A DNA stretch of 64,000 bases from the sequence record OQ174503.1. One strand, 5' to 3'. The translations under genes were made by a program, and so were the position numbers. A model generated the notes under the pieces. It had not been told where the DNA came from, made no database searches, and was given only the letters and a program-made list of their open reading frames with translations. The stretch is from Escherichia phage REP4. This document shows, piece after piece, positions 16,501 to 18,138 of the stretch; positions within the stretch are counted from its first letter, which is position 1, and the number at the start of each line of letters is the position of its first letter.

Positions 16501-17316
16501 ACTGTTAATGGTGATTGGAATAGTAAACGTCCTTTCGCAATTAACTTAACAACCGGCGAAGTGATGATGAATAATGGCATAGCTGTTCGCAGCGCTGCTT
16601 TATTCTATAATAGCATAAACGTCAAAGATAATGGTTCTATTAACTTTGATAAATCAGGTGCTAACCCGAGAAATATGAGAATATTTCATGCTGGCGATGC
16701 TTCTCGCGGTAACCGCATTGAAATTGCAGATGAAACTAACTATATTGCTTACTTTGAAAAGACTCCAGGTGGAGCTAACCGCTTTGTAGTAAATAATGCT
16801 ACTGTAGCTGGTGTTAACCAAATGAATTCATTTGGTATTAATATCAATAACGCACTTGGTGGAAATAGTATAGCATTTGGTGATAATGACACTGGAATTA
16901 AACAATCCGGTGACGGACTTCTTGATATTATTACTAACGCCGCACGCCGAATGAGATTCCAGACAGGTGACACCTATTCTGACATGAATATAAACGCTCC
17001 AAACGTTTATATTCGTTCTGATATTCGTTTGAAATCTAATTTCAGACCTATTGAAAATGCTCTTGAAAAGGTTGAACAGCTTGATGGTTTAATCTATGAT
17101 AAAGCTGACTATATAGGTGGTGAAATTGTTCAGACTGAAGCGGGTATTGTGGCTCAAACACTGCAAGATGTTTTACCAGAAGCAGTTCGTGAAGTTGAAG
17201 ATATTAAAGGTAATAAAATACTCACTGTTTCTTCTCAATCCCAGATTGCTCTTCTAGTTGAAGCTGTGAAAACACTTTCTGCTCGTGTAAAAGAACTTGA
17301 ATCTAAACTTATGTAA
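13528..17316 (+). CDS. 37: Long tail fibre distal subunit gp37 with C-terminal intramolecular chaperone domain, 1262 aa
   Basis: ORF track; N-terminus [36 protein letters not shown] typical of gp37; C-terminal SDIRLK...[12 protein letters not shown] resembles S74-type autoproteolytic chaperone domains. Confidence 0.92.
   Translation: [1262 protein letters not shown]
17017..17313 (+). other. Putative intramolecular chaperone / autoproteolysis domain at gp37 C-terminus
   Basis: Motif S-D-I-R-L-K followed by about 95 helical residues, as in tail-fibre and endosialidase chaperone domains. Confidence 0.6.
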
Positions 17317-17317
17317 A

Positions 17318-17335
17318 AGAGGGCTTCGGCCCTCT
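17318..17335 (+). other. Intergenic RNA hairpin AGAGGGC-TTCG-GCCCTCT between 37 and 38
   Basis: Perfect 7-bp GC stem with UUCG loop directly upstream of the gene 38 SD (AAGGA); no clean U-run, so more likely an attenuator or stability element than a full terminator. Confidence 0.5.
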
Positions 17336-17346
17336 AAGGATTTTTA

Positions 17347-18138
17347 ATGGCAATTGTAGGTGTTCCTGGCTGGATTGGTGAATCTGCCGTGAATGAAACT
17401 GGACAACGTTGGATGGATGCTGCAATGAAAGCAGTTCGTGTTTCAGTTCCTGGTTGGATGAGCTCAATGGCTGGACAATCTAAAGAAGTATATTACAGCA
17501 TTGGTGCTAGCAATTCTTATAATAAAGATACGCTAATAAATTGGATAAAAGCCCAAGGAAGTACTCCTGTTGTTATTACTATTACAGGAAATATTGTTTC
17601 TCAATCTACTGGTGTTCCATGCTTAGATTTTCCTAGCTCATTAACTAATGCATATGTTACCTTAAATATTAATAGTGGGGTTCATGTATTAGGTCGGGGA
17701 GGAAATGGCGGAAGTAACTCTGCTGGTGGAGCAGGAGGAACTGCAATAAATAACGGAATTGGAACTCGTTTAAGAATAAACAATAATGGTATTATTGGTG
17801 GCGGCGGCGGTGGCGGCGCAGGTGCTAGATACAATCCTTTCCCTCAAATGGATATGAAATTTGGTGGCGGCGGAGGTCGTCCATTTGGCGCAGCTGGCGC
17901 AGCAGGAGGTGGCGCAGCTGCAGCATCTGCTGGTACAATTTCTGCTCCCGGTAAAGGCACTGTTTCTGGGGTTCACCATGGAGGAGATGGTGGAGATTTA
18001 GGAGCTGCTGGCAAATCTTCATATATTCAAGGTGGTACTGGAGGAACTATTCACTCGGGTGGCGCAGCAGGTAAAGCTGTTACTGGTAATGCTCCAACTT
18101 GGACTAAAGTTGGTACAATATATGGTGCAAGAGTATAA
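17347..18138 (+). CDS. 38: Tail-fibre adhesin gp38 (T2/T6 type) with glycine-rich motifs, 263 aa
   Basis: ORF track; conserved N-terminal gp37-binding region followed by poly-Gly islands (GGGGGGGAGA, GGGGGRPFGAAGAAGGGAAA, GGDGGDLGAAG, GGTGGTIHSGGAAG) separated by variable segments. Confidence 0.92.
   Translation: MAIVGVPGWIGESAVNETGQRWMDAAMKAVRVSVPGWMSSMAGQSKEVYYSIGASNSYNKDTLINWIKAQGSTPVVITITGNIVSQSTGVPCLDFPSSLTNAYVTLNINSGVHVLGRGGNGGSNSAGGAGGTAINNGIGTRLRINNNGIIGGGGGGGAGARYNPFPQMDMKFGGGGGRPFGAAGAAGGGAAAASAGTISAPGKGTVSGVHHGGDGGDLGAAGKSSYIQGGTGGTIHSGGAAGKAVTGNAPTWTKVGTIYGARV

Follow-up and report, generated by a model that had tools for sequence, protein, structure and literature searches.

A probable T2-type host-recognition tip in Escherichia phage REP4: predicted self-cleavage of gp37 and a gp38 adhesin likely to bind Tsx

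Which protein at the end of the long tail fibre recognizes the host cell, and how this end of the fibre is assembled, are the questions raised by positions 16990-18138 of a 64,000-nucleotide (nt) stretch of Escherichia phage REP4 (sequence record OQ174503.1; the whole stretch is referred to as the window and all positions are counted in it). The segment consists of the 3' end of the gene 37 open reading frame (ORF) and the entire gene 38 ORF. In a database comparison the encoded proteins gp37 and gp38 match WBY53099.1 and WBY53100.1 of phage REP4, respectively, in every residue. Very probably, the module is the distal host-recognition tip of the long tail fibre of a T2-type Tequatrovirus, in which gp37 would be trimmed by its own C-terminal chaperone and then capped by gp38 as the adhesin. 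A first-pass annotation made from the sequence alone had proposed such a module. This reading was right in its essentials; a tail-fibre tip of the T2 type is an ordinary textbook system. The two genes and the two principal regions of gp38 (aa, amino acids) are located as follows.

13528-17316, + strand: gene 37, precursor of the distal subunit of the long tail fibre (ORF of 1262 aa, stop codon included)
17347-18138, + strand: gene 38, predicted monomeric tail-fibre tip adhesin (ORF of 263 aa, stop codon included)
17347-17484, + strand: N-terminal attachment domain of gp38, T2-type (aa 1-46, with W9, W22 and W37)
17692-18087, + strand: specificity domain of gp38 with glycine-rich motifs and hypervariable loops (aa 116-247)

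Two Pfam families together cover the whole of gp38, Gp38_N (PF21721, E 7.3e-18) and GP38 (PF05268, E 5.5e-69, aa 47-263, profile positions 1-218 of 218). The protein also matches the family phrog_2056 (E 4e-101). A phmmer search of the PDB returned gp38 of Salmonella phage S16 (6F45_D, E 2e-47, residues 8-261) and the receptor-binding domain of PP01 gp38 (9V85, E 1e-30; structure in PMC12892980). A griffithsin match in the PDB search (E 0.006) was taken as weak compositional noise.

An AlphaFold 2 model of gp38 was built on 47 homologues. It has a predicted local distance difference test (pLDDT) score of 87 and a predicted template-modelling (TM) score of 0.80. Residues 1-20 are of low confidence (pLDDT 39-57), as expected without gp37. 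Foldseek aligned the model to 6F45_D (E 4e-21, TM score 0.71-0.75) and to 9V85_C (E 2e-19, TM score 0.74/0.87, r.m.s. deviation 2.4 Å), and besides these two entries no match was found at E <= 0.001. Judged from the model, gp38 consists of a β-helix and a polyglycine-II sandwich. Trp9, Trp22 and Trp37 of the attachment domain align with three tryptophans of S16 gp38, which fit into pockets of the S16 gp37 tip (PMC6851490). Among the 47 homologues Trp9 and Trp22 are invariant and Trp37 is the majority residue. For S16 and PP01, gp38 was shown to be present in virions and to bind the receptor, as a monomer (PMC6851490, PMC12892980). By analogy with these relatives, gp38 of REP4 would likewise be a component of the virion.

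The name gp38 is shared by unrelated proteins of T-even phages. In T2 and T6, gp37 carries a Peptidase_S74 (S74) domain and gp38 matches PF05268. In T4, gp37 has no S74 domain, and a Collar domain and fibre repeats are found in its place. No Pfam family matches T4 gp38, and BLASTP detected no similarity between it and gp38 of REP4 (best E 13). The pair of S74 and GP38 domains thus occurs in T2 and T6 and neither domain in T4, which bears out the T2/T6 architecture that the first-pass annotation had assigned to gp38.

Product names in relatives read 'distal long tail fiber assembly catalyst', 'tail assembly protein' or 'hypothetical protein'. The near-identical adhesins of RB18 (MH553563), SA20RB (OL960581), AV109/114/115 (OR352939/44/45) and UFV13 (KU867876) are labelled from this group of names. 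These names come from the unrelated T4 gp38 and are misleading on function. If they were taken at their word, gp38 would be an assembly chaperone as in T4 and gp37 would bind the receptor itself. The one argument for this is how the records of RB18, SA20RB and AV109/114/115 name the product, and the idea has next to no probability: in addition to the lack of BLASTP similarity, gp38 of REP4 belongs to GP38 and Gp38_N while T4 gp38 is without a Pfam family, its modelled fold is that of the adhesins of S16 and PP01, and a note in the T4 RefSeq record states that the T2-type 'gp38' is unrelated to that of T4 and is an adhesin. A T4-like chaperone function is effectively refuted by these sequence and fold tests.

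How is the docking site for such an adhesin made? In a profile search, gp37 contains the Pfam domains gp37_trimer, Gp34_trimer and Peptidase_S74. The S74 domain sits at the extreme C-terminus, downstream of the other two, and two features are assigned to this end.

17017-17313, + strand: predicted C-terminal intramolecular chaperone/S74 autopeptidase (aa 1164-1262, 99 aa, last part of gp37)
17017-17034, + strand: S-D-I-R-L-K motif with the predicted nucleophile S1164 and the predicted general base K1169 (residues 1164-1169)

PF13884 (Peptidase_S74, 'chaperone of endosialidase') matches gp37 aa 1164-1221 over its full length (profile positions 1-58 of 58, E 8.5e-14). The score of 52 bits, with a curated Pfam cut-off of 22 bits, is far beyond chance, and the first residue of the domain is exactly Ser1164. 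All seven gp37 C-termini in the alignment have the S-D-I-R-L-K motif unchanged, and gp37 runs on for 93 residues after it. The spacing of Ser1164 and Lys1169 (+5) is that of Ser1264 and Lys1269 in pb1 of phage T5. A profile of the seven C-termini found gp37 of S16 in the PDB (6F45_A, E 8e-16). It also aligned along the full chaperone with the ICA domain of MYRF (7DC3, E 6.8e-6) and with another phage fibre (8JOV). The same C-terminal module terminates 35 different tail-fibre PHROG families.

Dozens of influenza HA2 chains (residues 82-136) appeared as well, with E 0.003-0.03, at gp37 aa ~1124-1177 (profile positions 24-77). They were rejected as coiled-coil or compositional noise. The corresponding part of the window is ~16897-17058, and the weak resemblance probably reflects chance or coiled-coil composition.

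The function of the domain is documented in relatives. T5 pb1 is cut at T1263|S1264, where Ser1264 is activated by Lys1269; the serine departs with the chaperone, and its replacement by alanine blocks cleavage (PMC4690869). For gp37 of S16, autocleavage of the last 113 residues at DLNVS^SDRRIKK was reported to occur after trimerization. Removal of this chaperone uncovers the docking face for gp38 and is needed for gp38 docking (PMC7917993). In T2 and T6 the C-terminus of gp37 is cut and then capped by gp38 (PMC3157838). Based on the alignment to the S16 site and to T1263|S1264 of T5, the cut is placed before Ser1164. The predicted scissile bond is R1163|S1164, in NVYIR(1163)|S(1164)DIRLK, and 99 residues would be freed. 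The self-cleaving chaperone claimed in the first-pass annotation is therefore supported, by the S74 match starting at Ser1164, by Lys1169 at +5 and by the agreement of the S16 and T2 relatives. Its placement of the cut at the S-D bond is not, since the predicted bond lies one position earlier. Autocleavage of gp37 itself is expected from what its relatives do.

For the assembly of the tip the following sequence of events is proposed. Gp37 would be synthesized as a precursor of 1262 aa, and its C-terminal S74 chaperone of 99 residues would drive trimerization of the β-helical fibre tip. Once the tip is correctly folded, Ser1164, activated by Lys1169, would cut R1163|S1164 in all three chains, upon which the trimer of chaperones would depart. 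The new tip, ending in ...NAPNVYIR, would be the docking face for one molecule of gp38. This would attach via its N-terminal helical bundle with Trp9, Trp22 and Trp37 and present the β-helix capped by the polyglycine-II sandwich. The loops between the glycine motifs would contact an outer-membrane protein, most likely Tsx.

The upstream Arg/Asp folding sensor of the S74 mechanism consists in T5 pb1 of R1250 and D1239. For the chaperone fold of gp37, single-sequence AlphaFold gave no confident model; for aa 1100-1262 the pLDDT is 43 and the helices in the model are untrustworthy. This weighs against the proposed mechanism, and the helical character of the chaperone tail is suggested by homology. 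As an alternative, gp37 might have a degenerate, non-cleaving S74-like C-terminus that is kept in the mature fibre. Such a retained domain is very improbable. Serine and lysine are found at the canonical spacing and are invariant in the relatives, and the profile match is full length. Gp37 of T2, with 81% identity in the C-terminal 162 residues, is processed proteolytically (Drexler et al. 1986, cited by PMC3157838), and the requirement for domain removal in S16 gp38 docking (PMC7917993) points the same way. A self-cleaving chaperone thus remains the preferred reading of the gp37 C-terminus.

Which part of the tip determines the receptor? Glycine makes up 61 of the 263 residues of gp38 and 48 of the 132 residues of aa 116-247. 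A scan of glycine density shows five to six islands (117-131, 149-159, 172-180 with 184-188, 211-219 and 229-236). Across the 47 homologues the glycine runs at 116-121, 152-158, 173-177, 213-216 and 238-242 are invariant, and the segments of high entropy are 124-126, 161-171, 185-193 with 205-212, and 224-236. This pattern is the published layout of gp38, with five GRMs (glycine-rich motifs) plus four HVSs (hypervariable segments) (PMC3157838). The first-pass annotation had counted four glycine-rich islands, which is too few by both the scan and the literature. In the crystal structure of S16 gp38 the domain has ten polyglycine-II helices with distal loops (PMC6851490). Three of the variable regions were delimited in gp38 of REP4.

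17824-17862, + strand: variable loop HVS2 (aa 160-172, ARYNPFPQMDMKF, highest column entropy)
17899-17982, + strand: variable region HVS3 (aa 185-212, high entropy at 185-193 and 205-212)
18013-18057, + strand: variable region HVS4 (aa 223-237, high entropy at 224-230 and 233-236)

In relatives, swap experiments and point mutations have established that specificity lies in the gp38 loops (PMC3157838; bioRxiv 10.64898/2026.04.02.716166). The earlier proposal that these loops, and not the gp37 tip, decide the receptor agrees with that work. The alignment with T2, T6 and other adhesins, which had been suggested along with it, mapped the variable loops and led to a receptor prediction.

The gp38 proteins of RB18 and UFV13 are 99.2% identical to that of REP4, and those of AV109, AV114, AV115 and Bas43 (TadeuszReichstein) are 97% identical. 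In the specificity domain the identity to AV114, AV115 and Bas43 is 95.5-96.2%. AV114 and AV115 were reported to depend on Tsx and AV109 was predicted to do so (PMC10844046). For Bas43, Tsx is listed as the primary receptor in the BASEL table and tsx was the top match in an independent genome-wide screen. According to Lutz et al., closely related gp38 proteins share their receptor (PMC12032242). The known receptors are FadL/OmpF for T2 and Tsx for T6, and HVS2 of REP4 retains a PFPQM core that is also present in the Tsx binder T6. Because gp38 is 97% identical to the adhesins of three phages with experimentally demonstrated Tsx dependence, its receptor is likely the E. coli nucleoside channel Tsx.

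Several points have to be set against this assignment. The specificity domain differs from the Tsx-proven adhesins in five positions, N163H and K171I in HVS2, H211Y in HVS3, D214N just past HVS3, and I235V in HVS4. The N163/K171/H211/D214 allele is common to REP4, RB18 and UFV13; compared with RB18, gp38 shows two differences, I235V and A261S, and the former is the sole one in the specificity domain. A literature search, including one for RB18 together with Tsx, yielded no receptor data for gp38 of RB18 or UFV13, and no paper on, nor experiment with, phage REP4 was found. A single substitution in HVS3, Q206L, switches the receptor from OmpF to OmpW (bioRxiv 10.64898/2026.04.02.716166). Likewise, PST differs from T6 by a few residue changes in HVS2/3 and has gained recognition of OmpA (PMC3157838). 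Since single loop substitutions can switch receptors, Tsx is rated as likely and not as certain.

The architecture may accordingly be as described and the receptor a different one, for example OmpA, or Tsx together with a second protein. The N163/K171/H211/D214 allele would then have shifted the specificity, and four of the five substitutions do lie in or beside HVS2 and HVS3. This is judged unlikely, as the specificity domain is 96% identical to that of three Tsx-dependent adhesins, close relatives in gp38 trees share receptors (PMC12032242) and the HVS2 core is that of T6. Still less probable is that this allele recognizes something other than canonical K-12 Tsx, either a loop variant of Tsx or Tsx plus OmpA. 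If so, reassortment of the gp37 tip and chaperone with this adhesin could be a natural two-level tuning of host range. Tsx itself remains the likely receptor.

Such reassortment can be traced in the DNA. A sliding comparison of identity with nine phages reveals the locus to be a patchwork, and the closest record over the locus in the phage collection searched has an identity of only about 96%. One segment concerns the tip directly.

16886-17281, + strand: recombinant patch, SA20RB/KIT06-like between RB18-like flanks (from sliding identity and mismatch counts)

The final ~44 residues of mature gp37 lie in the patch, as does almost the entire chaperone. Mismatches to RB18 number 1 in about 15800-16885, 88 in 16886-17281 and 3 in 17282-18048. 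Compared with KIT06, 5 mismatches are found in 16945-17417. The same variant of the patch occurs with other alleles of gp38, in JoYop (gp38 84% identical) and in slur07 (95%), which means that the tip of gp37, together with its chaperone, has reassorted separately from the adhesin. Gene 37 is also mosaic in its body. It is KIT06/SA20RB-like in 13550-14650, SA20RB-like in 14975-15275, similar to KIT06 only in 15425-15700 and identical to RB18 in 15800-16885. No phage in the collection searched matches the full gene 37 at >90% identity.

The glycine-coding part of gene 38 had been regarded in the first-pass annotation as a GC-rich, repeat-like stretch prone to recombination. The GC content is indeed 0.61 in 17800-17949, compared with about 0.35 around it. 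The repeat-like character is weak: the repeats are short and imperfect, of the GGTGGCGGC and TGGCGCAGC types (GGT/GGC/GCA), with Tandem Repeats Finder scores of 31-42. Both the GC peak and the repeats are due to runs of GGN and GCN codons. The same codon runs account for antisense ORFs of 50-70 aa in 17682-18022 (- strand), including one with a proline run at 17682-17834. These are their reverse complement and were rejected; the ORFs over the glycine-rich part of gene 38 show no sign of being genes.

Is this stretch (about 17790-17960) the main recombination hotspot that reshuffles specificity? Its composition and repeats would fit. In the literature, crossovers have been proposed to occur at GRMs (PMC3157838, PMC12032242), one engineered swap replaced just the portion of gp38 that starts at HVS2 (bioRxiv 10.64898/2026.04.02.716166), and a small cluster of differences from RB18 starts at 18049, beside the last glycine motif. 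Recombination there is plausible in general, but the detectable joints of the window fall outside the stretch. The comparison with RB18 reveals no joint within the glycine-coding DNA, the whole of 17282-18048 having the 3 mismatches mentioned. Joints are clearly seen at about 16886 and at 17282-17378, in the conserved 3' end of gene 37, the spacer and the 5' end of gene 38. This agrees with Trojet et al., in whose 14 chimeras no exchange had taken place between GRM1 and GRM5 and who proposed that the conserved sequences on either side are the preferred sites (PMC3157838). A hotspot in the glycine-coding DNA is therefore possible but doubtful, and joints in the conserved flanks are the better description of this locus.

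The neighbouring genes fit the assignment. The block 35-36-37-38-t is the arrangement of T-even phages, and gene 38 directly follows gene 37, with 30 nt from the stop codon of the one to the start of the other; in T2 and T6 the two genes are likewise adjacent. The remaining features of the locus are:

11676-12791, upstream of gene 37: gp35 homologue, hinge protein
12854-13519, upstream of gene 37: gp36 homologue
18170-18826, downstream of gene 38: T holin (t; Pfam E 5e-117)
17318-17335, + strand: intergenic hairpin AGAGGGC-UUCG-GCCCUCU followed by a T-run, a terminator-like match in the spacer between genes 37 and 38

The late-promoter consensus octamer TATAAATA is found at 12823-12830 (+), 24 nt ahead of the start codon of gene 36, and a second exact T4 late-promoter octamer lies farther upstream at 7756-7763 (+). 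The whole window contains four copies, fewer than expected from shuffled sequences (mean 9.3). In the octamer scan of the window, no copy was found directly ahead of gene 38 or t, which suggests that genes 36-37-38 are co-transcribed. The hairpin in the 30-nt spacer is GC-rich, with a UUCG tetraloop and AAGGATTTTT after it. Its minimum free energy is -13.4 kcal/mol, which is unexceptional when compared with shuffled sequences (z only -1.2), so no function is claimed for it. A 'terminator' feature appears somewhere among the annotations of the matched regions in phages G50 and NR1. In gp35, aa 58-126 match the Pfam family ILEI (interleukin-like inducer of epithelial-mesenchymal transition, FAM3-type) with E 3.5e-8, above the curated cut-off. 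We take this to be the 'GG domain' common to phage gp35 and animal FAM3/POMGnT1 proteins.

The range of E. coli strains open to adsorption by the phage is set by this module. Chaperone cleavage, capping by gp38, the arrangement of GRMs and HVSs and the prediction of receptors from gp38 similarity are all already known from the literature, and the proteins had been deposited. The added value is modest and consists in a clean example of natural modular exchange, in which the tip of gp37 and the chaperone were exchanged without the adhesin and the joints lie in conserved flanks. A Tsx call made from sequence is of practical use for phage cocktails and for foreseeing resistance through loss of tsx.

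Among the known systems close to the locus of REP4 is that of phage T2 (Tequatrovirus T2), which has the same gene order and an S74 domain in the gp37 end already compared above. Gp37 of T2 is longer (1341 aa vs 1262 aa). The gp38 proteins are 62% identical overall and 96% in the N-terminal attachment domain, whereas identity falls to 47% in the specificity domain and to 7-14% in HVS2-4. A different receptor is therefore expected for T2. Gp38 of T6 is 55% identical overall, with 65% in the N-terminal domain, 60% in the specificity domain and 54% in HVS2 (8% for HVS2 of T2). Taken domain by domain, gp38 of REP4 has a T2-type N-terminus and a specificity domain nearer to that of T6.

The adhesins of AV114 and AV115 (Mosigvirus) and of TadeuszReichstein/Bas43 (Tequatrovirus) have the same length of 263 aa and an identical N-terminal domain, but in the gp37 tip and chaperone the identity of AV114 and Bas43 to REP4 is only about 80-82%. 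RB18 is nearly identical in DNA at 15800-16885 and 17282-18048 and differs in the gp37 tip/chaperone patch. The tip complex of Salmonella phage S16 (PDB entry 6F45, receptor OmpC) aligns with gp38 over the full length with the three tryptophans kept, and its gp37 can likewise be aligned across both the SD(R/I)R(I/L)K site and the chaperone. It differs in identity (~41%), in the loops and receptor, and in the length of the chaperone (113 residues vs 99).

Peptidase S74 chaperones, such as those of the K1F endosialidase, T5 pb1, the GA-1/phi29 appendages and the MYRF ICA domain, have in common the Ser/Lys pair at +5 and the position at the extreme C-terminus of a trimeric fibre; that of T5 pb1 comprises 133 aa, compared with 99 aa here. 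In these other systems the removal of the domain exposes the receptor-binding tip itself, whereas in gp37 it would create the docking site for an adhesin. T4, finally, has the same locus position (36-37-38-t) and the proximal Gp34_trimer domain of gp37 in common with REP4. It differs in that its gp37 binds the receptor itself and its gp38 is an unrelated assembly factor of 183 aa.

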